From Fimbriiglobus sp. (GTDB lineage: Bacteria > Planctomycetota > Planctomycetia > Gemmatales > Gemmataceae), in assembly GCA_043785105.1 (NCBI GenBank), contig JAYVXO010000231.1:1-30388 (forward strand): DNA of 30,388 bases. The letters are read 5' to 3'. The translations under genes and the position numbers were made by a program. Positions 715-23,886 of this stretch are shown here, one piece after another. The first letter of the stretch is position 1, and each line of letters begins with the position of its first letter. The notes beneath the pieces are model-generated. The model searched no databases. It saw nothing but the letters and a program-made list of their open reading frames with translations, and was not told the origin of the DNA.

Positions 715-3183
715 ATGACTGTACCTACTGTTGCTAGTGATTTTCTCGCCGTGGTCCGCAAAAGCGGCCTGATAGAAGAACGCAAGTTATTGGAGGTTTT
801 CCCGAATCCCGAAGCCGTCCCGCAAGACTCTCAAAAGGCAGCGGCAATATTAATGCGTTCGGGATTGTTGACGCAATTCCAGGCCAAACAACTGCTGGTC
901 GGGAAGTTTCGTGGCTTCATGCTCGGGACGTACAAATTGCTGGAACCGATCGGCAAAGGCGGGATGGGAACGGTTTTCCTGGCGGAACATACGTCGTTGA
1001 AACGAAAAGTCGCCGTCAAAGTTCTTCCCGTGGATAAGGCCCGCGACAAACTGACCCTGGAACGGTTCAACCGGGAAGCGCGGGCGGCGGCGGCGCTGGA
1101 TCACTCGAACATCGTTCGGCTGCACGACATTAGCCAGGGCAACGGCGTTCACTTCATCGTGATGGAATACATCGAGGGCAACGACCTCCAAGGGCTAATG
1201 GCGAAAACGGGGCCACTCCACTTCGCACAAGCGGCCCACTACGTGGCTATGGCTGCGGCAGGGTTGCAACACGCCCACGAGAAAGGCTTCGTTCACCGGG
1301 ACATCAAACCGGGTAATTTGATGCTGACGAAAGACGGCACGATCAAGATTTTGGACATGGGTTTGGCACGCTCGTTTACCGACGAAAACGACAACCTGAC
1401 GGCTCAACTCGGGGACGCCTCCGATGTGGCGGGGACGGCGGACTACATTTCGCCGGAACAAGCCATGCAGGGAAAAGTCGATGAACGCAGCGACATTTAC
1501 AGTCTCGGTGCGACACTGTTCGCCCTCGTGACGGGCCACCCGCCGTTCCGCGGTTCCACCGTGCAGAAGTTGATGCAACACCAAATGGCCGAACCGCCCC
1601 GGCTCTCGAAGCTCAAGGGCGTCGTGCCACCGGCACTCAGCGAAGTCGTGGCGAAAATGCTGCAGAAAAAACCGGCGGATCGGTACCAATGTGCCGCCGA
1701 CGTGATTGATGCGTTATCGCCGTGGCTGCCCGCACCATCAACCGGCAACATTGCGCAAGACCCGATCACGAATTCCGATATGACGCCGATGAGCGAGACC
1801 GCCGCGCGGCGAGTGGTGGGGGCGAATTCGACAAAATCGCGGATGAAGCGAACTCAGCCCGGAGCGACGAATCACAAGAAGTGGTACATCGCTGGCGGGG
1901 TCGGCTTGGGATTGCTGATTGTGGTTGGTGTGCTTGGCGGAATCTTGCTGTCGGGTTCGAGTTCACAACCCGTTGTCACGCAAAACTCTAACCCGATCCC
2001 GGCTCCCACGATACCGCCACCGGCACAAACCCAGCAGAAGCCTGCGGTCAGTAACAATTCACCAAGCCCCAAGGTCATACTAAAACAGGCTCCACCGGGT
2101 CGGAGTGCGACACCGAATGGCATCGTTTATGCGGCAGATTTTAGCACGCTCACGCTCGGCGAATCGCTGGCAACCAATACGAACAATGCGGAAATCGGAC
2201 CACTCCCAATGGGCTGGAAGTGTGAAGTGTACAAAGCAAATGTCGAGGGGATATTCCGGATTGGGACCGAAGACGGCAACAAATACTTGGCCGTCTGCGA
2301 CAACCAGGGCGAGACCGGGGCACAGCTCAAATTTGAACCGTACTTGGTTCACACCGATTTGATTCAAGCCGACCGACAGTACGAAATCCGCATCGAGTGT
2401 CGGACGGACACGACGAGCGGCGGGTTCGTTAGAATTCAACGCAACGGTGACTGGAAAATGCTCGTGTCCAAGGCGATCGGTTCCAAGGACGGCTGGCAAA
2501 CAGTCCAAGTCCCGTTCGTGATGGCAGAGGCGACGCGATTTCAGATTGCGATGGGAACGGGAGAAGTGGCTCGCGGCAAATTCCTGGCAGTTCGGAAGTT
2601 TGAAATCGTTGAGACCAACGCCGGTGGGACATCGTTGAAATCGGGTACGCCCACCGACACGCGGCTCTTGAAGTCCATTCAGCAAGTCGATTTCTCCACA
2701 ATCAAGCCGTTCAAGGCCGTGTTTCAAGACGGCAAATCGGACGACCCGCAATGGTTTAGCAACCTCCCGGAAGGCGTTTCCGCCTATTGCTGGAAGAAAG
2801 AGTCAGTCGCCGAATTACGTGCGGAAGCAAGTCACCAGGGCATGGCGGTCGGGATGACCAATTTGAACAACGATTTGTCGGCCCAGTTGACGTTCAAAAT
2901 TGAAGAGAAAAGACCGCTGGAACCGAACCGGGAATACCGAATCCGGATTGAGTATCGGACAGCGAACGACACGACCGGGACACTCTGGGTCCGCAAGCCA
3001 GACTACAGTTCGGTGAAACAACTCGAATTGGCGAACACCGACAACAAGTGGAAGGTCGCGGACGTGACGTTCCAGCGTCCGGTCGATATTCCGCTTCACG
3101 TCGTGATGGCCAATGAATCAACGGGTGAGGGGAACACGCTTTGGGTCCGCAAGTTTGAACTTCTCGAATCGGCCACGAAGTAG
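715..3183 (+). CDS. membrane-anchored Ser/Thr protein kinase with a duplicated extracytoplasmic C-terminal domain
   Basis: Hanks kinase motifs are present: G-loop GKGGMGTVF, VAVK lysine, catalytic loop HRDIKPGNLM, DMG (DFG variant) and GTADYISPEQ. There is one TM helix (WYIAGGVGLGLLIVVGVLGGILL), followed by about 400 aa containing two homologous modules. The track ORF starts at GTG 673. ATG 715 (MTVPTVASDF...) is the more likely start. Confidence 0.92.
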   Translation: MTVPTVASDFLAVVRKSGLIEERKLLEVFPNPEAVPQDSQKAAAILMRSGLLTQFQAKQLLVGKFRGFMLGTYKLLEPIGKGGMGTVFLAEHTSLKRKVAVKVLPVDKARDKLTLERFNREARAAAALDHSNIVRLHDISQGNGVHFIVMEYIEGNDLQGLMAKTGPLHFAQAAHYVAMAAAGLQHAHEKGFVHRDIKPGNLMLTKDGTIKILDMGLARSFTDENDNLTAQLGDASDVAGTADYISPEQAMQGKVDERSDIYSLGATLFALVTGHPPFRGSTVQKLMQHQMAEPPRLSKLKGVVPPALSEVVAKMLQKKPADRYQCAADVIDALSPWLPAPSTGNIAQDPITNSDMTPMSETAARRVVGANSTKSRMKRTQPGATNHKKWYIAGGVGLGLLIVVGVLGGILLSGSSSQPVVTQNSNPIPAPTIPPPAQTQQKPAVSNNSPSPKVILKQAPPGRSATPNGIVYAADFSTLTLGESLATNTNNAEIGPLPMGWKCEVYKANVEGIFRIGTEDGNKYLAVCDNQGETGAQLKFEPYLVHTDLIQADRQYEIRIECRTDTTSGGFVRIQRNGDWKMLVSKAIGSKDGWQTVQVPFVMAEATRFQIAMGTGEVARGKFLAVRKFEIVETNAGGTSLKSGTPTDTRLLKSIQQVDFSTIKPFKAVFQDGKSDDPQWFSNLPEGVSAYCWKKESVAELRAEASHQGMAVGMTNLNNDLSAQLTFKIEEKRPLEPNREYRIRIEYRTANDTTGTLWVRKPDYSSVKQLELANTDNKWKVADVTFQRPVDIPLHVVMANESTGEGNTLWVRKFELLESATK

Positions 3184-3184
3184 T

Positions 3185-4408
3185 TCAACTCCCGAACTGG
3201 CTCCAGTCGATCGACTCTTTCGTTAATTGCGGCAACACAACGGGCAACGCTTCGAGGTATTTCGTGGCGGCGCCGGTGTTGAACACGACGACTTCGTCAT
3301 CCGGGGTGACATCCCCGGAGGCGATGAGCTTTTCCAGCACATCCAAGCAAATCGCCGTTTCCGGGCAGACACTGATTCCTTCGGCGGCACTGGCCCGACG
3401 CATCCACGGCGCGATGCTGGCTTCTGCACCCGCAACGGCTCGACCGCCACTGGCACGGATCGCATCGAGCATCATAAAATCCGCGACCGCCACCGGCACC
3501 CGTAACCCGCTGGCCACAGTGTGCGCGTTCGGGAACAACTCGGCGAACCGTTCCCCTTTCTCGAACGCCTGCACGATGGGGGCACACCCTTCGGCCTGAC
3601 AGGAGATCAACCGGGGGAACTTGATCGGTTGCTGCAACCACCCCAGTTCCGCGAGTTCTTGGAACGCCTTCCACATCCCGATCAATCCCGTTCCACCGCC
3701 AGTTGGGTAGAGGATCACGTCCGGGAGCTTCCAGTTCAGTTGTTCGGCCAACTCGAGGCCCATCGTTTTCTTGCCTTCGAGCCGGTATGGTTCCTTCAAC
3801 GTGGAGAGATCGAACCAGCCCATTTTGTCCACGCCGTCCCGGACGATCTTGCCGCAATCGTTGATGAGTCCGTTCACGCGGAATGCCTTCGCTCCGTACA
3901 AATACGGCTCAAATTGATTCACAATCGGCGTGTCCGACGGCATGAAGACGAAGCACTCCATCCCGGCACGCGCCGCGTAGGCGGCGGCGGCACCACCCGC
4001 GTTGCCCGCAGTTGGTAGGGCCACCCGCGTCACCCCGAGGTGCTTCGCCATGCTGATCGCCGTGGTCATCCCGCGACTTTTGAAGCTGCCGGTTGGCAAC
4101 TGCGATTCATCCTTCACCCACAGTGTTTTTAGCCCGAGTTGTGAACCCAGTCGGGGGCAGCGCAGCAGGGGCGTCATCCCTTCGCCGAGGGTGACGGGTT
4201 CCACGTCCAACGGCAACGGCAACAGTTCACGGTAGCGCCACAACGACGGCGGACGTGTAGCAATGACGGCCGGGGATGTGGCGAGTCGGATGCGGTCCAG
4301 ATCGTAGCGGACGACGATCGGTCGCCCGGCGTGGGTGTTCAGAAGTTGTTCGGGAAGGAACCGTGTTCCGTCGATCGCCGATTCCAAATGGGTCACGAAG
4401 TGCGTCAT
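3185..4408 (-). CDS. thrC: threonine synthase (PLP-dependent, fold type II)
   Basis: Carries LWRYRELLPL and GEGMTPLL, plus the PLP-lysine motif TGSFKSRGMT. The length (407 aa) fits the short ThrC class. The start ATG overlaps the upstream stop (ATGA at 4408-4405). Confidence 0.85.
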   Translation of the reverse strand: MTHFVTHLESAIDGTRFLPEQLLNTHAGRPIVVRYDLDRIRLATSPAVIATRPPSLWRYRELLPLPLDVEPVTLGEGMTPLLRCPRLGSQLGLKTLWVKDESQLPTGSFKSRGMTTAISMAKHLGVTRVALPTAGNAGGAAAAYAARAGMECFVFMPSDTPIVNQFEPYLYGAKAFRVNGLINDCGKIVRDGVDKMGWFDLSTLKEPYRLEGKKTMGLELAEQLNWKLPDVILYPTGGGTGLIGMWKAFQELAELGWLQQPIKFPRLISCQAEGCAPIVQAFEKGERFAELFPNAHTVASGLRVPVAVADFMMLDAIRASGGRAVAGAEASIAPWMRRASAAEGISVCPETAICLDVLEKLIASGDVTPDDEVVVFNTGAATKYLEALPVVLPQLTKESIDWSQFGS

Positions 4409-5949
4409 GGGTTACACGGTGTGGAATGGGAAAAGACAAAGAATATCACTTCGCCGTTAGCGCGGTCCAGGCTTGTTCGGCGCGTGAATTGGGCGTCCAA
4501 CTGTTCGCTTTGCTCGGCGGTCGGCAACCGCGCGGCGTTCAGACGGACTTCGATCAAGCTGACCGAAGCCCGGAGTTCGTTCAGGTAGATTTGCATTTTC
4601 GCGCGGCTTTCAGCGGGCGTTGCTAGCAGTAACTTCTCGATTGTGTCCGCGCCATTGCGGAGCTGTTGCAGTTGGTCACGGGTCGATTTGTCTGCGTTGC
4701 CGTTCGGATTCAGGGTGGCAATCACCAGACTTTGCTGGAGGCGGCGCAGGCGTGCGGGATGGAGGGCGTTGACGAGGCTGTTGACTTCCGCAGTCAGCGC
4801 CGCGTTCACAACGGGTGCCGACGCTACTTGAATCGGCTCGGGTGGCGTCCGAAGGTTCTTCCAGTCCGGGGTCGAATACGAGATGACGAGCAACGCCCCG
4901 ACGATCCCGACGAGAACGGCGATCAGTCCAATCGCGCCGGCGGCAACCTTCCGGCGGCGGGCGCCGGGCCGCGTCCAATCCAGAAACAGACCCGCAAATA
5001 ATCCGACGACGCCACCGAACAAGTGCCCCTCCCAACTGACTCCCGGAGTCAGACTGAGCACCGTGTTCACCCCGATCACCAACACGAATCGCCGCAGCCA
5101 CTCACTCACAATCGCGGGTGGAAGGTGGTCACGGTAACGCAGTAGCCACGCCAGGACCGCGATAATTAAGCCCCAAATGGAACCCGAAGCACCCGCCGTC
5201 ACGCCGTGCGGGTGGATTGCCGCAGCGGCGGCGGCAGCACCGACCCCGGAGATGAGGTACAGCAGTGCGAACCGCCACCGACCCCACAGATTTTCGGCGA
5301 TCGGGCCGATGACACTCAGTGCAAACAGGTTCACCAAAAGATGAATCGTCCCGACGTGAACAAACCCCGCCGTCAGTAATCGCCACCATTCTCCCCGCAA
5401 CAACTCGGGTCCGGAAATCGCACCGATGCGGAGGAGGATTTTGATGTCACCCTCCCGCAAGTAAGTTGCGACCGACGACCCCACGTGCCACGCGACCACG
5501 CCGCCGATCAGAAACCAGACCAAGCAGGCAAACAAGATCGCCGGGGCTACGATCGACGGTCGCGGTGACAGAAACGCCGCACGGGTAATCTCGCCGCGGT
5601 CGTAGGCCGTCAATCCGGGTGTGGCTTCATGGACCGGGTCCGATCCCGGACGGTGCGAGGTGGCCAAGGACCGCATCTCCGGCAATTGCGACGGGTCCGC
5701 AAGCATTTGCAACCCAGCCGGCGTCAGCGAAAATCCTTGCCCACGCCCCTTGGTCCAATCCGCAACGGACACCAAGCCCGCTTTGACCAGCATCCAAACG
5801 GGTTCGTTGAGGCTCTCCCGATCAATCCCCGTTTGACGCGCAAACACCGACGGGAACCAAAAATCCGGCGCCACGTCGGCGCAGAACCGCAAGACCTCAA
5901 TCGCGGTCGGGGTCTTGGCATCGGGGGCGGAGGGGGGATTCGGGTTCAT
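4405..5949 (-). CDS. rhomboid family intramembrane serine protease with extra N- and C-terminal soluble domains
   Basis: Rhomboid core motifs are present: WWRLLTAGFVHVGTIHLLVNLF, catalytic GASGSIWGLI and histidine HLFGGVVGLFAG, with several TM helices. The core is flanked by an N-terminal segment of about 110 aa and a helical C-terminal tail of about 150 aa. Confidence 0.85.
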   Translation of the reverse strand: MNPNPPSAPDAKTPTAIEVLRFCADVAPDFWFPSVFARQTGIDRESLNEPVWMLVKAGLVSVADWTKGRGQGFSLTPAGLQMLADPSQLPEMRSLATSHRPGSDPVHEATPGLTAYDRGEITRAAFLSPRPSIVAPAILFACLVWFLIGGVVAWHVGSSVATYLREGDIKILLRIGAISGPELLRGEWWRLLTAGFVHVGTIHLLVNLFALSVIGPIAENLWGRWRFALLYLISGVGAAAAAAAIHPHGVTAGASGSIWGLIIAVLAWLLRYRDHLPPAIVSEWLRRFVLVIGVNTVLSLTPGVSWEGHLFGGVVGLFAGLFLDWTRPGARRRKVAAGAIGLIAVLVGIVGALLVISYSTPDWKNLRTPPEPIQVASAPVVNAALTAEVNSLVNALHPARLRRLQQSLVIATLNPNGNADKSTRDQLQQLRNGADTIEKLLLATPAESRAKMQIYLNELRASVSLIEVRLNAARLPTAEQSEQLDAQFTRRTSLDRANGEVIFFVFSHSTPCNP

Positions 5950-6059
5950 CTATGTGTTTAGTTTATCGAGACCGAGTGAATTTAGTCACATCACTTCCCC
6001 AGAAGCGATTACAGTAGTGGACTGAGTCCGCCTCCTGCGTCCTCTTCTGGAATGATACC

Positions 6060-6995
6060 ATGATCCCGAATTGGCTGACCTGTTCCGACGAAGTCACGCA
6101 GGCGATTCGTGACCAGCGCCCGATTGTCGCACTCGAATCCACACTCATCTCGCACGGCTTGCCGTGGCCGGCCAACTTCGAGACCGCGACCAAGGCCGAA
6201 GCGGCTGTCCGTGAGGCGGGCGCGATTCCGGCCACGATTGCGGTGATGAACGGCAGGCCGACGATCGGGCTAACGGTGACGGAATTGGAATACTTGGCGA
6301 AAGCCGAGGGCGTGTTAAAGGCGAGTCGCCGTGATCTTGCGGCTGCGGTCACACTCAAGAAAACCGCCGCGACGACGGTTTCGGCGACAATGGCGCTGGC
6401 CCACTTGGCCGGGATTTCCGTGATGGCAACCGGCGGGATTGGCGGTGCCCATCCGCGACATGACGGCCTGAACCCGTTTGACATTTCCACAGACCTCACC
6501 GAGTTGTCCCGCACGGCGGTGCTAGTGGTCTGTGCGGGTGCCAAAAGTATCCTCGATCTGCCGCAAACGCTCGAACTTCTCGAAACCTTTGGCGTGCCGG
6601 TCCTCGGCTATCGCACCGACGAGTTCCCGGCGTTTTATGTGCGTGCTAGTAGCGGCACTGTGTCAACACGTGTCGAGACAGCCCAGGAAGCGGCCGCGAT
6701 ATTCGCGGCCCATGTGCAGATGGGCGGGCGCGGGGCGTTGTTAGCCCAACCACTCGATGAAGACGTGGCGATCGCGCCGGACCTTTTCAACGCCGCGATG
6801 AAGCAAGCCGAAACGGAAGCCCTGTTGAAGAACATCAAGGGTGCGAAGTTGACGCCGTTCTTGCTGACCCGACTGGCCGATTTAACCGTCGGGAAAACCC
6901 TGGCCGCGAACCAATCGCTCATCGTGGCCAACGCCAAACTCGCGGCGGAAGTCGCTGGGCAACTCGAAGTGGTATTCCGCGATTCGACAGGGTGA
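6060..6995 (+). CDS. psuG: pseudouridine-5'-phosphate glycosidase (IndA/PsuG family)
   Basis: Family-typical blocks ALESTLISHGLPWP, ATTVSATMALAHLAGISVMATGGIGGAH, FDISTDLTELSRT and VVCAGAKSILDLPQTLELLETFGVPVLGY. Length 311 aa. Confidence 0.9.
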   Translation: MIPNWLTCSDEVTQAIRDQRPIVALESTLISHGLPWPANFETATKAEAAVREAGAIPATIAVMNGRPTIGLTVTELEYLAKAEGVLKASRRDLAAAVTLKKTAATTVSATMALAHLAGISVMATGGIGGAHPRHDGLNPFDISTDLTELSRTAVLVVCAGAKSILDLPQTLELLETFGVPVLGYRTDEFPAFYVRASSGTVSTRVETAQEAAAIFAAHVQMGGRGALLAQPLDEDVAIAPDLFNAAMKQAETEALLKNIKGAKLTPFLLTRLADLTVGKTLAANQSLIVANAKLAAEVAGQLEVVFRDSTG

Positions 6996-9314: not shown

Positions 9315-9405
9315 TTCACCACAGAGGGCACGGAGGGCCACAGAGAAAACCATTTGAAATGATTTTTCGATTTCCTCTGTGGCCCTCCGTGCCCTCTGTG
9401 GTGAA
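9315..9405. repeat. palindromic hairpin element A (31-bp perfect stem, 29-nt spacer)
   Basis: 9315-9345 (ttcaccacagagggcacggagggccacagag) is the exact reverse complement of 9375-9405. The left arm contains CACAGAG/CACGGAG/CACAGAG at 9320, 9329 and 9339. The spacer is A/T-rich (aaaaccatttgaaatgatttttcgatttc). Confidence 0.9.
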
Positions 9406-11947: not shown

Positions 11948-12040
11948 CCTCACGCCTTTTTTCATCGCCTCTGGCATGGGGTTCGCGTAGTGTTTCAACG
12001 TGACCTTGCCCCATTTTGAAACTCTTCCGGAGTGTGCGAT

Positions 12041-12751
12041 ATGTTAACCCGTCGTGATCTTTTCCGTGTCGCGGGTGTAGCAGTGGCGGCCCCGACTTTG
12101 TTCGCAACGGCCCGCGCCGCCGAGACCAAAGCCGCTGGGTTTACGCTTGCCAAGTTGCCGTATGCCTACGAGTTCCTTGAACCGATCATCGACGCCGAGA
12201 CGATGACGATTCACCACGACAAGCACCACCAAGCCTACGTCGATAACCTGAACAAAGCCCTGGCCGGGGCGGACGATTGGTTGAAGATGCCGATCGAAGA
12301 AGTCGTCAAAAAGGTGAAGGAAGCCCCCGAGAAAGTTCGCGCGGCGGTCCGCAACAACGGCGGCGGGCACTGGAACCACGACTTCTTCTGGAGCCTGATG
12401 ACGAAGCCGGGCTTGGGTGGCGCACCGAAGGGCGATCTCGCCAAGGCGATTGACACGAGCTTCGGCGGGTTGGACGGCTTCAAGAAAGAATTCACCGCAG
12501 CATCTGTCGGTCGCTTCGGAAGTGGTTGGGCATGGCTGGTGCCGGGCAAGGAAAAACCACTGGCGATCGTCAGCAGCCCGAACCAGGACAACCCATTAAT
12601 GGACGGCGGCCCACGCCCGGTTCTCGGCATCGACGTGTGGGAACACGCCTATTACTTGAAGTACCGCAACTTGCGGGCGAAATATGTCGAAGCATGGTTC
12701 GGCGTCATCAACTGGGATGTGGTTGCAGCGAACTTCGCCAAGAAGGGGTAA
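12041..12751 (+). CDS. Fe/Mn-family superoxide dismutase with a twin-arginine signal peptide
   Basis: SOD blocks LPYAYEFLEPIIDAETMTIHHDKHHQAYV, NNGGGHWNHDFFW, FGSGWAWLV and GIDVWEHAYYLKYRN. The N-terminus is MLTRRDLFRVAGVAVAAPTLFATARA-AE (Tat-like TRRDLF with an AxA site). ATG 12041 is preferred over the track GTG 12032. Confidence 0.93.
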   Translation: MLTRRDLFRVAGVAVAAPTLFATARAAETKAAGFTLAKLPYAYEFLEPIIDAETMTIHHDKHHQAYVDNLNKALAGADDWLKMPIEEVVKKVKEAPEKVRAAVRNNGGGHWNHDFFWSLMTKPGLGGAPKGDLAKAIDTSFGGLDGFKKEFTAASVGRFGSGWAWLVPGKEKPLAIVSSPNQDNPLMDGGPRPVLGIDVWEHAYYLKYRNLRAKYVEAWFGVINWDVVAANFAKKG

Positions 12752-12765
12752 CACGGGATAAGAAT

Positions 12766-12896
12766 TTAACCACGGAATACACGGATAACACGGAAGAAAT
12801 CCCAAGCCGAAATTGTGCCAGAGTGGGCGAACGGTTTCTTGGCATAGTTTTTCAGTTTTGATTTCTTTCCGTTATTTCCGTGTCTTCCGTGGTTAA
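12766..12896. repeat. palindromic hairpin element B (imperfect 35-36-nt arms, 60-nt spacer)
   Basis: The left arm 12766-12800 (ttaaccacggaatacacggataacacggaagaaat) pairs with 12861-12896 (atttctttccgttatttccgtgtcttccgtggttaa). The outer 12 bp are perfect, then there is one mismatch, then 7 bp, then several bulges. CACGGAA/CACGGAT/CACGGAA lie at 12771, 12780 and 12789. An extra CACGGGA lies at 12752. Confidence 0.85.
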
Positions 12897-12913: not shown

Positions 12914-13669
12914 TTACAGGAGTCGCTTCACCAAATCTGCCATGCGGCCAACGGCAAGCTTGGCGGTGGCTTCGACTTCTTTGTGGCTGAGCGGGCCGTC
13001 GGTGATTCCGGCGGCCTTGTTCGTGATGCACGACAACCCCGCAACTTCCAGACCTCTCTCAACTGCCGCTTCCGCTTCCATCGCGGTGGACATGCCGACC
13101 GCGTCTGCTCCCAGACTTTTCAGTGCGCGAATCTCAGCGGGCGTTTCGTAACAAGGCCCCGTCAGTGCGGCGTAGGTTCCGAACAGCAGTTCCGGCGCGT
13201 CGCCTTGTAATTTCGCAATCAGTGCGGGCGTGTAGACACGCTTGCTCGTGGTATCCTCACGCCACGCCCTTGCGCCGAGCCACTTCATGTGGGCGCGAAT
13301 TCCCATCACGCTGCCGGGATTGAGTGCCGGATGAATCCCGCCCGCAGCATTCGTTAGGATCACCCGCTTGACACCGAGATCGGCAACGAGGTTGATAAGG
13401 CGTGTCACGCGGTCCCACGGATGGCCTTCGTAGAAGTGGACGCGACCGAAACAAACAAGCACCGGGATGGCATTCCACATGCCGACGGAAAGTTGCCCCT
13501 TGTGCCCCGCAATTGTCGGCGGGACCAAACCTGGGATGTCGCCGTAGTGGACAGTCGCCGACTCGATAAACTCTTCGGTGACACCCGTTAACCCGGAGCC
13601 TAGGACGATGGCAGTGCGGGGGCGAAGTGCGTGAACACAATCACAGAATGGATCGAACGGAAGCGTCAT
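12914..13669 (-). CDS. purine nucleoside phosphorylase (PNP/MTAP family, PunA-like)
   Basis: Family blocks AIVLGSGL, GHKGQLSVG, GRVHFYEG, ILTNAAGG, TGPCYETPAEIRALKSLGADAVGMST and LSCITNKAAG. The ATG overlaps the upstream stop (ATGA at 13669-13666). Confidence 0.88.
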   Translation of the reverse strand: MTLPFDPFCDCVHALRPRTAIVLGSGLTGVTEEFIESATVHYGDIPGLVPPTIAGHKGQLSVGMWNAIPVLVCFGRVHFYEGHPWDRVTRLINLVADLGVKRVILTNAAGGIHPALNPGSVMGIRAHMKWLGARAWREDTTSKRVYTPALIAKLQGDAPELLFGTYAALTGPCYETPAEIRALKSLGADAVGMSTAMEAEAAVERGLEVAGLSCITNKAAGITDGPLSHKEVEATAKLAVGRMADLVKRLL

Positions 13670-14385
13670 GACACCGTGTCCAAGTCGATGCCGCTGCCTG
13701 ACGGGTCCGGGATTTGTTTGCTCCGCACGACGTGGGCGATCAGTTCAGCCGTCGTTTGCAAGCCTTGCCGCGTGGAGTTGACGCACAGGTCGTAACAGGT
13801 TGGGTCGATGATCGCTAGATCGGTCAACGAGCTAATGAACAAGTCGCGGCGGCGGTCGCGGTTCTGGGCCTCGACCGCCGCTTCTAATTCCGTGAGGCGT
13901 AACGATTGGCTGAGGTACGCGATCCGCTGTTCGATGGGCGCGACGATCCGAACGTGAACGGTCGTCTCGGGCGGTAAGAGAAACCCCGCACCCCGTCCCA
14001 CTAACACGACTTCGCCTCGGGCAGCCAGGGTGAAAATCACCCTGGCAATCGCCGCAGTATCGCTCGCGGGGATTAACTCGCGGCGCCGGAGCAGTCTCGA
14101 CCATTCGAGTTCGGCCCATTGCTGGGCGGGCAGGGGGGTATCCTTCAAAAACTCGTCCCGCGCCGATTCGTCGTGGGCGAGGTAGTCGAGCATGTCGTGC
14201 GAGAACACTTGCCAGCCAAGCAACTCGCCGACGGCAATCGCAATGCTACTGCCACGTGCCCCAGCTTCACGGCTAATTGCGACCGTGAACGACTGCGGTC
14301 GTTGCAAAACCGGGGGCGGAGTGCCAACACCGCGGTAGCCGTGCAACGGCGCGTCATCGGGCTTCAAATCCGCACCAGGCATCAT
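13666..14385 (-). CDS. cytidylate kinase-like family protein (Cytidylate_kin2-type, lysine-less P-loop)
   Basis: AISREAGARGSSIAIAVGELLGWQVFSHDMLD resembles the I.I.R..GSGG..IA..LA..LG family signature. ATG 14385 follows a GAGAGGA RBS. The track start at 14388 is TTG. Confidence 0.72.
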   Translation of the reverse strand: MMPGADLKPDDAPLHGYRGVGTPPPVLQRPQSFTVAISREAGARGSSIAIAVGELLGWQVFSHDMLDYLAHDESARDEFLKDTPLPAQQWAELEWSRLLRRRELIPASDTAAIARVIFTLAARGEVVLVGRGAGFLLPPETTVHVRIVAPIEQRIAYLSQSLRLTELEAAVEAQNRDRRRDLFISSLTDLAIIDPTCYDLCVNSTRQGLQTTAELIAHVVRSKQIPDPSGSGIDLDTVS

Positions 14386-20460: not shown

Positions 20461-20681
20461 GGGAGAAGCCCTCGATAACGGAAAGGCCATTCGGCGGGAT
20501 GTCGGCAAGTCGCAAACGGAATGTAACCGGCAGGAAAGGTATTGTGCGGCATAACCGGATGAGATGCAAGCGCGAACAATCACAGCTGAGACCCGAATCC
20601 GTTTGCGACCCGGTTTTCCTCGGCCCTTCGATGGCTTCGTTGGTATCCTGTACCTTCATCAATCACACAGGGGTAGCGTTC

Positions 20682-21659
20682 ATGGGTGTGGATGTGGCCG
20701 GGACGGCGGCGAAAATCGTCGCCAACATGGAGAAGGTGATTATCGGCAAGCGTCCGCAACTGGCGCTGGCGTTGGCCGCGTACTTCAGTGAAGGCCACAT
20801 TCTGCTCGAAGATGTTCCGGGTGTGGCCAAGACGATGTTCGCGCGGGCACTGGCCCGCAGCGTGGGTTGCACCTTCAAGCGGCTCCAGTGTACGCCCGAC
20901 TTGTTGCCGACCGACGTGACCGGCGTGTCGATCTTCAACCAGAAGACGACGGAGTTCGAGTTCCGCCCCGGCCCGGTGTTCGCGCAAACTCTGCTGACGG
21001 ACGAAATCAATCGGGCCACGCCGCGAACGCAAGCCGCACTGCTGGAGGCGATGGCCGAGCGCCGCGTGAGTGCGGACGGCCAAACCTATGTTCTGAAGCC
21101 GCCATTCCTAGTGATTGCAACGCAAAACCCGGTTGACCAAGAAGGCACATTTCCCCTGCCGGAAGCGCAACTCGACCGCTTCCTGGTGCGGCTGAGTCTG
21201 GGTTACCCGACGTATGAAGAAGAATCCAAGATGCTGACGCGGTTGCAAAAAGGTCACCCGATCGACGACCTGCAACCCGTCGTGGGCGCGCAAGATGTCA
21301 TCAACTGCCAGGACGCCATCCGCGATATTCACGTCGATGACAAGATTAAGCGCTACCTTCTCGACATCGTTCACGGCAGTCGGGAACACGAAGACGTCAT
21401 GCTCGGCGGCAGTCCCCGCGCTTCGATTGCGTTGTTTCGCTGTGCCCAATCGCTCGCCGCCATTCAGGGCCGTGACTTCGTCATCCCCGACGACGTGAAA
21501 CGCATGGCCCAACCCGTCATGGCCCACCGGCTAATTCTGAAGCCCGAAAGTCGGCTCCGCAAAAAGACCCCGTCGATCGTGGTGAAAGAACTGGTCGGCG
21601 ACGCCAAGGTGCCACTCATCGACCGCGATTATGCCGTGAATAAAGAGTATTTCGGATGA
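20682..21659 (+). CDS. MoxR-family AAA+ ATPase
   Basis: Blocks GHILLEDVPGVAKT (Walker A region), LLTDEINRATPRTQAALLEAMAERRVS (Walker B/sensor), FLVIATQNP and GGSPRASIAL. ATG 20682 gives the typical length of about 325 aa. The 61 upstream codons in the track are Arg/Cys-rich and not protein-like. Confidence 0.93.
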   Translation: MGVDVAGTAAKIVANMEKVIIGKRPQLALALAAYFSEGHILLEDVPGVAKTMFARALARSVGCTFKRLQCTPDLLPTDVTGVSIFNQKTTEFEFRPGPVFAQTLLTDEINRATPRTQAALLEAMAERRVSADGQTYVLKPPFLVIATQNPVDQEGTFPLPEAQLDRFLVRLSLGYPTYEEESKMLTRLQKGHPIDDLQPVVGAQDVINCQDAIRDIHVDDKIKRYLLDIVHGSREHEDVMLGGSPRASIALFRCAQSLAAIQGRDFVIPDDVKRMAQPVMAHRLILKPESRLRKKTPSIVVKELVGDAKVPLIDRDYAVNKEYFG

Positions 21660-21679
21660 CGGGTTGCGGCGAAGCCATG

Positions 21680-21874
21680 AACAGCCGGATCACGAAAACA
21701 CGAAAGTACGAAAGCGCGAAATAAGAGTACGAGGAGTTGCTTAGTCACGGCGGGTTCGTGGTGAGAATGGTTACTTCAAGTCACTGAATTCAAGAACCAC
21801 GAGGAACGAAAATGAAGCTTAAGCTTTCGGATTTTTTCGTGTTTTCGTACTTTCGTGTTTTCGTGATCGGTTTT
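21680..21874. repeat. palindromic hairpin element E (arms of about 37 nt, spacer of about 110 nt)
   Basis: 21685-21721 pairs with 21835-21870, giving 36 pairs if two G-T positions count as wobble, with one bulged G. The units CACGAAA/CACGAAA/TACGAAA/CGCGAAA lie at 21691, 21699, 21707 and 21715. The spacer holds degenerate units and the 12-nt palindrome AAGCTTAAGCTT (21815-21826). Confidence 0.88.
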
Positions 21875-21912
21875 ACATTCGGACGGTGTTGTCGTGATTC
21901 TTCGAGGCACCC

Positions 21913-22284
21913 ATGAGCCACGAGTTTGAGCCGCTGTCGGCCACGATCATTCAAGCCGCCATTGACGTTCACAAGGCACTCGGGCCGGGGTTCCTCGAAG
22001 CGATCTATCACCGGGCGTTGCGTGTGGCCCTCTTGCACCGGGAGGTTCCTCACGAGGTGCAGAAAGAAGTTCGGGTCGCGTTCGAGGGGGTCGATGTCGG
22101 CGTCCATGTCCTCGACCTGTTCGTGGCCGGTCAGATTGTCGTGGAGTTGAAGGCGGTGAAGGCACTGGAAGACATTCACTTTGCTCAGGTGAAGTCGTAC
22201 CTGAAAGCCACAGGGGCGAGAACCGGGTTACTGCTGAACTTCAATGCCCCGACACTCGTGATTAAGCGAGTCATGCTGGGGTAA
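21913..22284 (+). CDS. GxxExxY protein (PD-(D/E)XK nuclease superfamily, PDDEXK_3-like)
   Basis: Contains the signature GPGFLEAIY (G-x-x-E-x-x-Y). The nuclease core D...E.K is in VLDLFVAGQIVVELKAV. It also has AQVKSYLKATGARTGLLLNFN and is 123 aa long. A GAGG RBS lies 6 nt upstream. Confidence 0.9.
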   Translation: MSHEFEPLSATIIQAAIDVHKALGPGFLEAIYHRALRVALLHREVPHEVQKEVRVAFEGVDVGVHVLDLFVAGQIVVELKAVKALEDIHFAQVKSYLKATGARTGLLLNFNAPTLVIKRVMLG

Positions 22285-22356
22285 CAGAGACCGCCTGATT
22301 GCGAATGTATGAATTGGCGAAATAACCATTGGACTAACTTGGTCGTGCCGAAAGAT

Positions 22357-22462
22357 AAAACGGATCACGAAACCACGAAAGTACGAAAACACGAAATAGA
22401 AGCCTAAGATTTTGGATTTTTTTCGTGTTTTCGTACTTTCGTGGTTTCGTGATCCGGCTGTT
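22357..22462. repeat. palindromic hairpin element F (36-bp perfect stem, 24-nt spacer)
   Basis: 22361-22396 (cggatcacgaaaccacgaaagtacgaaaacacgaaa) is the exact reverse complement of 22421-22456. The arms are more than 90% identical to the arms of element E. Confidence 0.92.
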
Positions 22463-22494
22463 GATTTATTTCATCATGTTGCGGAGTACTTCGC

Positions 22495-23886
22495 ATGAAC
22501 AAAGGTTGGCGTTGGTTGCTGGTCATCATCGCCTTACTTGGGCTAGCACTGGCGTTGAAAGCCGGGCTGGTTGCGTTCGCGGGGTACGTGTTGCTGGGGG
22601 TTTACTTGTTGAGCCGATTTCTTGCTAAGAGTTGGGTGCAAAACGTCTCGGCGGAACGGATCGCCAAAAACGAACCGCTCGAAGTCGGCGATTCCCTGGA
22701 TGTCACGTTGAAGTTTCGTAACAGTGGCACGATCCCGATCGGCTGGGTGTTGATCGAAGAACTGTTACCCGAAAAAGCGGTCCGGCAAAAGCCGCCCCGG
22801 ATCACGGTCAAAGGGCGTCGCATCCAGGTGTTGTTTCTGCGCCCGTTGCAAACCAAAACCATTAAACTGAAGCTCACCTTCGAGGGGCGGGGCTACTACC
22901 CGATCGGCCCCATCGTGGCAGAAACCGGCGACGTGTTTGGCCTTCATCGTCGCCACCGATTGTTAGCCGCGCCCATCTACGTCATGGTGTTGCCGAAGAT
23001 TTTGCAACTGCCGAAATACAACTTCGCCTCCGAACGACCCATCGGCGAAATCCGTTTGGCGAATCGCCTCTTCGATGACCCCACTCGAACCGCCGGCGTG
23101 CGGCCGTACCAACTCGGCGACCCGCTACAACGAGTCCACTGGCGCGCGACCGCCCGCACCGGGCAACTGCACTCGCGCATCTACGAACCCACGTCACTTG
23201 CCGGCGCCACGGTCATCGTCGATTTCCACAAGGACGGCTACCCGAAACGCGGCGAACCGTATCGGTCGGACTTGGCCATCACCACAGCGTGTGCGTTGGT
23301 CTACGCGGTGTCGATGTTGAACCAACAAGTGGGGCTGGCGAGCAACGGCCGCGATGCGGCGGAGCGAATCCGTGAGGAGTCGTTGCAAGAGACCGCAGAG
23401 GATGCCGACACCGCAGGCTATGAAACCCGCCACGCGACCCGCGATCGGTTTGAACTGCTGGAAAAAACCAACCGCATTCGACCTCTGATCGTGGATACTC
23501 GTCGCGGGTTCGACCAATTTCAACAAATCCGCGAAGCGCTGGCTCGACTAGAATTGACGGATGCGATGAAGTTCCCGCAACTGATCCTGGAAGTGGGTCC
23601 GCGTCTCCCACGGGATGCGACATTGATTGCCGTGTTGCCAGCCGTGTCAGTCGAAACTGCCATTGCGCTCGGTATGATGCGACGGCAAGGGTTTGCGATT
23701 TCTGCAATACTGGTTGGTATTGCCGACGACGGTAGTGATGATCGCGCCGTTGCAGTCGGGCGGTTAGTGGCCGAAGGCATCCGCGACGTGAGATTAGTGA
23801 ATAGCGAATTGGAATTGCTCGCACTCGGTGACCGGAATGCGGGAACCGGGCCGCCCGATTATGCCTTCAAAACGACATTGGCGTGA
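22495..23886 (+). CDS. DUF58 domain protein (MoxR-associated, VWA-like) with two N-terminal TM helices
   Basis: Contains the DUF58 signature GVRPYQLGDPLQRVHWRATARTGQLHSRIYE. A GGAG RBS lies 8 nt upstream of ATG 22495. Confidence 0.9.
   Translation: MNKGWRWLLVIIALLGLALALKAGLVAFAGYVLLGVYLLSRFLAKSWVQNVSAERIAKNEPLEVGDSLDVTLKFRNSGTIPIGWVLIEELLPEKAVRQKPPRITVKGRRIQVLFLRPLQTKTIKLKLTFEGRGYYPIGPIVAETGDVFGLHRRHRLLAAPIYVMVLPKILQLPKYNFASERPIGEIRLANRLFDDPTRTAGVRPYQLGDPLQRVHWRATARTGQLHSRIYEPTSLAGATVIVDFHKDGYPKRGEPYRSDLAITTACALVYAVSMLNQQVGLASNGRDAAERIREESLQETAEDADTAGYETRHATRDRFELLEKTNRIRPLIVDTRRGFDQFQQIREALARLELTDAMKFPQLILEVGPRLPRDATLIAVLPAVSVETAIALGMMRRQGFAISAILVGIADDGSDDRAVAVGRLVAEGIRDVRLVNSELELLALGDRNAGTGPPDYAFKTTLA

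Follow-up and report, generated by a model that had tools for sequence, protein, structure and literature searches.

Among the closest described counterparts of the element reported here is the pairing of repetitive extragenic palindromic (REP) sequences, which bear a GTAG/CGTC tag (PMC3733652), with REP-associated tyrosine transposases (RAYTs), together with the REP doublets that form hairpins (REPINs). In that system, as in the one we describe, a small enzyme gene (~400–500 bp) lies between repeats of its own that form hairpins, numerous copies without a gene are scattered through intergenic DNA, and the type of repeat matches the type of protein (PMC3337134). Our subject is a cassette built around a GxxExxY gene in a stretch of 30,388 nucleotides from Fimbriiglobus sp. 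(assembly GCA_043785105.1, contig JAYVXO010000231.1, positions 1 to 30,388), hereafter the window. The enzyme of the cassette is a PD-(D/E)XK nuclease, whereas RAYTs are HUH/Y1 (IS200-like) transposases; Pfam and NCBIfam searches of the cassette protein returned only PDDEXK_3/GxxExxY and no HUH/Y1 match. Unlike REPs, the cassette arms consist of tandem 8-nt units starting (T)GAATCACGAAA or GGATCACGAAA, without GTAG/CGTC (PMC3733652). Moreover, RAYTs are single-copy and vertically inherited, while GxxExxY genes are multi-copy and the cassette is polymorphic for presence and absence.

Other systems share part of this design. As in insertion sequences (ISs) and miniature inverted-repeat transposable elements (MITEs), terminal inverted repeats surround one small open reading frame (ORF), gene-free inverted-repeat hairpins are abundant, and the window locus shows filled/empty polymorphism with a target duplication. 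However, the cassette differs from ISs in having no recognised transposase (DDE, HUH, serine or tyrosine) or DNA-binding domain, its sole ORF encoding a 123-aa protein, in measuring only about 450–820 bp, in having arrays of 8-nt units as repeats, and in the lack of a detectable target duplication at other loci. The 23S rRNA intervening sequences with an S23p ORF, which are regarded as selfish elements, likewise place a short ORF (~120 aa, function unknown) in a loop closed by a long stem of terminal inverted repeats (PMC4990558), but the cassette lies between protein-coding genes and its product has a nuclease fold, not a four-helix bundle. Integron cassettes have a single 3' attC hairpin, whereas here arms of tandem 8-mers stand on both sides of the gene; the neighbouring genes of the window gave no integrase match in a Pfam profile search. 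By analogy, we rate the cassette as a probable autonomous element with non-autonomous hairpin partners that differs from these systems in enzyme class, repeat structure and size. No description of such a gene-in-hairpin-arm architecture for GxxExxY/PF13366 was found in the literature searched, nor an Rfam family, and the cassette suggests a hitherto undescribed type of miniature mobile element.

In the window, the cassette separates a MoxR gene from a DUF58 gene. The features of the locus are as follows (here and below, L-numbers denote the loci compared and P-numbers the proteins compared).

20682..21659, + strand: MoxR-type AAA+ ATPase gene, 325 aa, left host gene (Pfam AAA_3, E 5e-62; AAA_lid_2)
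21645..21659, + strand: left target copy GAGTATTTCGGATGA, the new MoxR 3' end with stop codon
21660..22483, + strand: inserted DNA, 824 bp, made up of both hairpins (E and F), the GxxExxY gene between them and short spacers at the outer ends
21677..21724, + strand: left arm of hairpin E, at the same time the outer left cassette arm; four ACGAAANN units plus stem extension AACAGCCGGATC
21725..21831, + strand: loop of hairpin E, 107 nt, non-coding, poorly conserved (84% identity with indels against L121)
21832..21876, + strand: right arm of hairpin E, inner left arm, with flank GATCGGTTTTA
21913..22284, + strand: GxxExxY/PDDEXK_3 gene, 123 aa (matches to PF13366 and TIGR04256)
22285..22355, + strand: 3' spacer between gene and hairpin F, 100% identical in L121, aligning to the flank of the L024 free hairpin
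22356..22396, + strand: left arm of hairpin F, inner right arm
22397..22420, + strand: loop of hairpin F, 24 nt
22421..22465, + strand: right arm of hairpin F, outer right arm, with extension GATCCGGCTGTT
22484..22498, + strand: right target copy GAGTACTTCGCATGA, containing the DUF58 ATG, identical to the empty-site sequence
22495..23886, + strand: DUF58 gene, 463 aa, right host gene (Pfam DUF58, E 3e-9)

The original prediction, made from the letters of the window, had placed the MoxR stop at 21659 and the DUF58 start at 22495, 835 nt apart, and all three values were verified, the latter position being that of the DUF58 ATG. It had also read the unit as a small insertion cassette bounded by terminal inverted repeats, which agrees with the outer (48 nt) and inner (41 nt) repeats described below and with the existence of an empty site. 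In the empty allele, L296 (GCA_031368205.1), MoxR and DUF58 overlap by ATGA and have no spacer (junction AAAGAGTACTTCGCATGAACAAGG); because the 824-bp segment is absent from this allele, it is an insertion. The accompanying remark that no target-site duplication was evident turned out to be wrong: GAGTATTTCGGATGA and GAGTACTTCGCATGA, which agree at 13 of 15 positions in the window, are duplicates of a sequence that is single-copy in L296. The cassette thus inserted into the MoxR-DUF58 ATGA overlap and duplicated 15 bp, and it is owing to this duplication that both host reading frames are intact. The MoxR orthologs have 325 aa, some being identical across the 314 aa compared, and the true MoxR start is internal to a longer ORF that begins at 20499. 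The DUF58 ortholog of L296, which overlaps the MoxR stop, is also of 463 aa.

Comparison of orthologous loci, which the original prediction had proposed as a way to distinguish a cassette from ancient fixed synteny, spoke against fixed synteny, for empty (L296), filled (the window, L121, L297 and L298) and rearranged alleles were all found. In the rearranged allele (L206, L207 and L209), the MoxR-DUF58 site carries a different, GC-rich palindromic element (L206:4506–4690; 50-bp perfect stem; DNA fold –91.5 kcal/mol, z –10.4), while of the cassette's outer right arm only the final ~1.5 units and the flank, GTGTTTTCGTGATCCGGCTGTTGAT, are kept. This site appears to be a hairpin-element hotspot. 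At the nucleotide level, the MoxR gene of the window is 94.5–95.0% identical to that of L121, 94.2% to that of L296 and 93.3% to that of L206; since L296 and L121 share 97.1%, more than the window and L121 do, the empty L296 is nested among filled alleles. Judging from these sequences, the nesting would reflect either precise excision or an insertion that spread by recombination between lineages. Long inverted repeats stimulate recombination between short flanking direct repeats. Precise excision may accordingly have proceeded via recombination between the 15-bp repeats, for which the expected junction would be AAAGAGTACTTCGCATGAAC. Strains that share 92–97% identity differ by gain, loss or exchange of the cassette. 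Divergence between the window and L121 is also not uniform along the cassette: the tract that begins with the gene and runs across hairpin F up to the right junction is 98.1–100% identical (the gene itself 98%), hairpin E is 84% identical with indels, including the loss of one 8-nt unit, and MoxR, at 94.5%, and DUF58, at only 90.0%, fall below the gene-hairpin F tract, and this is therefore not "ordinary divergence". MoxR homologs at 88–89% identity were rejected as orthologous loci, as their gene neighbourhood differs. In L212 (4475–6746), genes for a SacI-like restriction endonuclease and a DNA methylase, not DUF58, lie beside an 89%-identical MoxR homolog.

The two hairpins had been described as near-identical, which holds for their arms and not for their loops. 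Hairpin E pairs 21688–21724 with 21832–21868 (37 nt, 92% complementary) around a loop of 107 nt, and hairpin F pairs 22361–22396 with 22421–22456 (36 of 36 positions complementary) around a loop of 24 nt. Every arm repeats the 8-nt unit ACGAAANN four times in tandem, and the suggestion that the four arms are copies of one module was confirmed by a 26-nt module with four copies in the window, where 100 shuffles gave an expectation of 0.00. Longer flanks shared by the outermost and by the innermost arms had also been seen, correctly: the outer arms (21677–21724 and 22418–22465) pair over 48 nt at 90%, including AACAGCCGG/CCGGCTGTT, the inner arms (21835–21875 and 22356–22396) pair over 41 nt at 95%, including TAAAACSGATC, and each of the two pairs has a separate stem extension. 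The predicted RNA folds reach –86.4 kcal/mol for hairpin E (z –7.6 against shuffles) and –67.2 kcal/mol for hairpin F (z –11.9). An Rfam 15 search of the region returned only generic microRNA-precursor hairpin models, far below gathering scores. The window cassette is an extended form, in which the gene is enclosed by a larger dispersed hairpin element, present in two complete copies that mirror each other; this element occurs gene-free as L024 and L072, where the free hairpins have a flank homologous to GATCGGTTTTA of the hairpin E right arm. The compact form, ~450 bp in total, consists of an arm, ~10 nt with a purine run resembling a Shine-Dalgarno (SD) sequence, a 369-nt ORF, 3–8 nt and the mirror arm.

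The association between gene and arms extends far beyond the window. A protein-selected sample of 80 metagenome loci contained 71 GxxExxY genes with enough flank, and a gene-spanning inverted repeat was counted at a score of 17 or more. Such a repeat enclosed 49 of the 71 GxxExxY genes and 1 of 58 neighbouring ORFs (Fisher p 6e-17); the single positive control was itself a second GxxExxY paralog, which leaves 0 of 57 true neighbours. In the GxxExxY family at large, genes generally lie between inverted arrays. Thus the anticipated co-occurrence of the hairpin module with GxxExxY paralogs was found, both in these 49 genes and in relatives at unrelated loci: essentially all relatives with at least 54% identity have NCGAAANN arms there. 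Arms as in the window occur at the unrelated loci L123, L125, L221, L299, L007 and L049, the L123 cassette adjoining the nuo operon and the L125 cassette lying between DUF1501 genes. In addition, four GxxExxY genes met by chance in a genome scan were all within long inverted repeats, three of them with other units.

The arm unit differs between branches of the family. It is NCGAAANN in the window's clade, down to 54% identity and including the deltaproteobacterial L049, AGGAANNN in a contiguous subclade of 11 proteins, ACGGAGNN for the L197 protein and CACAGAGN for the L020 protein, and units of 9–22 nt accompany the L204, L193 and L030 proteins. The L020 contig is planctomycete, and because it carries a free ACGAAANN hairpin in addition to its CACAGAGN cassette, arm type tracks the protein, not the host. 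Arms and protein co-diversify. Within loci, an alignment-based test on protein-selected cassettes found that arms covary (own-partner score 23.9 vs 15.8 between loci; 0 of 5000 permutations reached the observed mean), and a base-anchored ungapped arm comparison for free hairpins gave only a weak signal. As a separate observation, L174 carries two GxxExxY paralogs ~2 kb apart (799–1329 and 3001–3357), each in its own ACGAAA-type arms.

Gene-free hairpins with cassette-type arms are scattered in the intergenic DNA of many phyla. The pattern of three ACGAAANN units was found at no fewer than 120 genome loci in many phyla. Among the 120 matches listed, about 51 have two arms that pair into a hairpin, the arm, (A/G)ATCACGAAAaCACGAAAGnACGAAAaCACGAAA, being nearly the same in all, and only L007 and L049 adjoin a GxxExxY gene; 46 of the 51 gene-free hairpins are intergenic, and their orientation (22 co-directional, 8 divergent and 4 convergent) shows no bias. 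A dedicated terminator role for the free hairpins was rejected given this lack of orientation bias and T-runs after only about half of them, and a viral vector was rejected because 65 pattern matches on viral contigs included one arm pair and no GxxExxY gene. Arm arrays beside GxxExxY genes differ in length between samples. In L221–L230, clusters of many ACGAAANN arms ~500 nt downstream of a GxxExxY gene differ by ~130-nt duplications and deletions, and in L299–L305 similar many-ACGAAANN-arm clusters, also downstream of a GxxExxY gene, have gaps of 177, 397 and 485 nt between samples, which indicates that the arrays are unstable. The hairpin elements appear to be nested, the ACGAAANN hairpin forming the core of a ~200-nt palindromic repeat in L024 (5560–5860) and L072 (1950–2290; Fimbriiglobus metagenome-assembled genome), with an outer inverted repeat TAGGACTTACGCAGT.... 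Since the mismatches within arms are not biased towards G.U on the sense strand (122 vs 116, p 0.75), a DNA-level role is favored over a purely RNA-level one.

The 123-aa ORF is the one credible gene within the 835-nt gap, and has an SD-like GAGG 6–9 nt upstream. Its product matches PF13366 PDDEXK_3 (E 9e-36, 123.2 bits vs a cut-off of 22) and TIGR04256 GxxExxY (E 7e-37, 126.4 bits vs a cut-off of 35). The intact PD-(D/E)XK core (D...ELK) read from the translation was upheld by 38 aligned sequences, across which G26xxE29xxY32 and the catalytic D68 and E78-x-K80 are invariant. The AlphaFold (AF2) model (predicted local distance difference test, pLDDT, 92) had as its top Foldseek matches Cas4 SSO0001, the lambda and alkaline exonucleases, MGME1 and the AdnAB/AddAB nuclease domains, at template-modelling (TM) scores of about 0.56–0.58, the best match being 4ic1 (E 4e-4); Hjc scored lower. 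According to this model, the protein is a minimal Cas4/RecB-like PD-(D/E)XK core without an extra domain. It shares the D...ExK arrangement with the domains of Cas4, RecB and lambda exonuclease, its best structural matches, but is ~80 residues shorter and lacks added N- or C-terminal elements. In Cas4, one such added terminal element carries an Fe-S cluster module. A sequence search of the PDB with the protein gave nothing significant, and an exact-protein database look-up of the 123-aa sequence returned no record. The GxxExxY/PDDEXK_3 family, whose function is unassigned, is multi-copy in many phyla and, when clustered at 50% identity, falls into 12,093 clusters (E ≤ 1e-3). Several family representatives (P0243, P0252, P0254 and others) are ~260–290 aa long with two tandem GxxExxY domains. 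Furthermore, the gene calls of P0118, P0039, P0048 and P0068 run into the arms and have spurious N- or C-terminal extensions; one of these, TKTRKYEGTK, is translated ACGAAA repeats.

On balance, we are inclined to regard the 824-bp segment as a miniature mobile selfish cassette, in which a putative mobilising PD-(D/E)XK nuclease is combined with inverted hairpin arms of 8-nt units. From the start, a mobile or selfish cassette, or else a nuclease recognising these hairpins, had been suggested in case the hairpin module proved to be linked to such genes, and the empty site and the family-wide association of module and gene lend support to the cassette. The nuclease would probably act in trans, with its cognate arms as substrate, and what it recognises would be either the 8-nt unit, the arms then serving as arrays of recognition sites, or a hairpin or cruciform formed by the arms, which would form readily only when the loop is short. 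The nuclease might then promote cut-and-paste or copy movement of the arm-bounded DNA. Alternatively, the gene could be copied into gene-free hairpins by break-induced synthesis, with the arms providing homology. In either case, gene-free hairpins would stand to the loaded cassette as MITEs do to IS elements and REPINs to RAYTs, serving as its non-autonomous partners or targets. Cutting of gene-free hairpins followed by repair from a loaded copy by way of the arms would explain why the gene sits in a loop, why target duplications are generally lacking and why the gene diverges less than its flanks; cut-and-paste or copy transposition would account for the window locus, where hairpins and gene together entered a hairpin-free site. 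The arrangement recalls homing endonuclease genes and TnpB/IscB, in which a nuclease gene lies inside the sequence of its putative target, and the lower divergence of the cassette relative to its flanks is as would be expected after recent conversion or homing. Unlike in those systems, neither an intron or intein nor a guide RNA is evident, and the putative target is a dispersed hairpin repeat and not a single conserved gene. A broader version, which we put forward only tentatively, is that GxxExxY proteins are endonucleases with sequence or structure specificity for their own arm unit, and that together with the arms they form a very large, so far unrecognised class of ~450-bp autonomous elements, which would spread by cutting gene-free hairpins and copying themselves into them or by transposition of arm-bounded DNA. 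The periodic-unit hairpins of Planctomycetota, Acidobacteriota, Desulfobacterota and other phyla might then be their non-autonomous partners.

Several observations weigh against a selfish cassette mobilised by its nuclease. We infer the mobilising role of the nuclease, and likewise that it cuts or binds the arms. A target duplication could be demonstrated only at the window locus, flanking direct repeats at 41 other loci being not above chance. Of the 22 distant relatives, with less than 57% identity, no more than 9 had a clear inverted repeat, and common descent of the whole cassette could by itself explain why arm type follows protein clade. The identical proteins P0050 and P0099, each on many contigs, represent one locus each and so give no evidence of recent transposition. 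The loops of free hairpins contained no consistent gene-end remnants, so that an origin of these hairpins as deletion derivatives is unsupported. Lastly, the high conservation of the GxxExxY protein, together with its lack of any recognisable DNA-binding module, could instead mean a host function.

Another possibility is that the hairpins are a mobile or recombinogenic REP/MITE-like entity moved by another enzyme or by host recombination, and that GxxExxY is a captured passenger with a repair or defence job, as in a composite transposon. Strong conservation fits a passenger with a cellular task, the window gene is bracketed by two complete mirror copies of an element that is also found gene-free (L024, L072), gene-free hairpins outnumber loaded ones (about 51 vs 2–3 among the 120 matches listed), and in L206 another gene-free hairpin element occupies the same MoxR-DUF58 site. 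We nevertheless consider capture rather unlikely, because random capture leaves unexplained that ~70% of a 12,000-cluster family lies in arms in which no neighbouring gene is found, that the unit type tracks protein clade across hosts, and that the compact form is so tight, with arms abutting the start and stop codons. Still more doubtful, in our view, is that the arms act mainly as RNA, with RNase III cutting the duplex and thereby releasing or silencing a selfish ORF and insulating the operon, and with a nuclease unrelated to the hairpins. An ORF within a long terminal stem is indeed the architecture of intervening sequences excised by RNase III (PMC4990558). The cassette gene is co-directional with MoxR and DUF58, a scan of the cassette region for sigma-70 promoters and terminators found none, and the predicted RNA folds of hairpins E and F are very stable. 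Perfect 36-bp stems are good RNase III substrates, as is generally known, and would suit such a role. However, the mismatches have no G.U preference on the sense strand, gene-free hairpins also occur in divergent intergenic regions, the L123 GxxExxY gene is antisense to both of its neighbours, and RNA processing does not account for the insertion, the 15-bp duplication or the presence/absence polymorphism. An RNA role is at the same time compatible with a DNA-level explanation and does not exclude it.

Ancient fixed local synteny, or inverted repeats arising by chance or as an assembly artefact, can practically be dismissed. The close relative L121 does have gene and hairpins in the matching place, but fixed synteny is already refuted by the empty allele L296, with a rearranged allele existing besides, and by the non-uniform divergence across the cassette; chance is countered by a module with zero expected matches, and artefact by the same structure in several independent assemblies (L121, L297 and L298).

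Embedding in clade-specific hairpin arms, together with a proven insertion, gives the GxxExxY family a concrete, testable role, and inverted arrays of 8-nt units define a new class of hairpin repeats dispersed in bacterial genomes. Should the nuclease recognise its own unit, the family would be a source of many small nucleases whose short specificities vary naturally, and if the link between nuclease and hairpins is true, it would be a second, mechanistically independent relationship of the RAYT/REPIN type. Under the broader version, elements of ~450 bp would be among the smallest autonomous mobile elements known. Long intra-operon gaps in these phyla may often be such cassettes. For annotation, ORF calls that run into the arms yield spurious protein extensions of the "TKTRKYE" type.

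Two further gene-free hairpins lie in the window. The one at 9315–9405 has 35-nt arms (97% complementary), a 21-nt loop and units CACAGAGG/CACGGAGG, types that elsewhere flank other GxxExxY clades (L020, L197). The one at 12766–12896, with 47-nt arms (77% complementary) and units CACGGAAN, is placed between the convergent ORFs 12020–12748 (+) and 12917–13744 (–). PSCyt2/PSD1 genes are among the window neighbours, and these genes and the MoxR orthologs assign the window to Gemmataceae, close to Fimbriiglobus. In F. ruber, an unrelated 339-aa gene separates MoxR from DUF58. At L123, ~1.4 kb from the GxxExxY cassette, a Uma2 gene (PF05685, a small PD-(D/E)XK "putative restriction endonuclease"; 5742–6356, – strand) lies inside the nuo operon between the genes for the 30-kDa and 49-kDa subunits.

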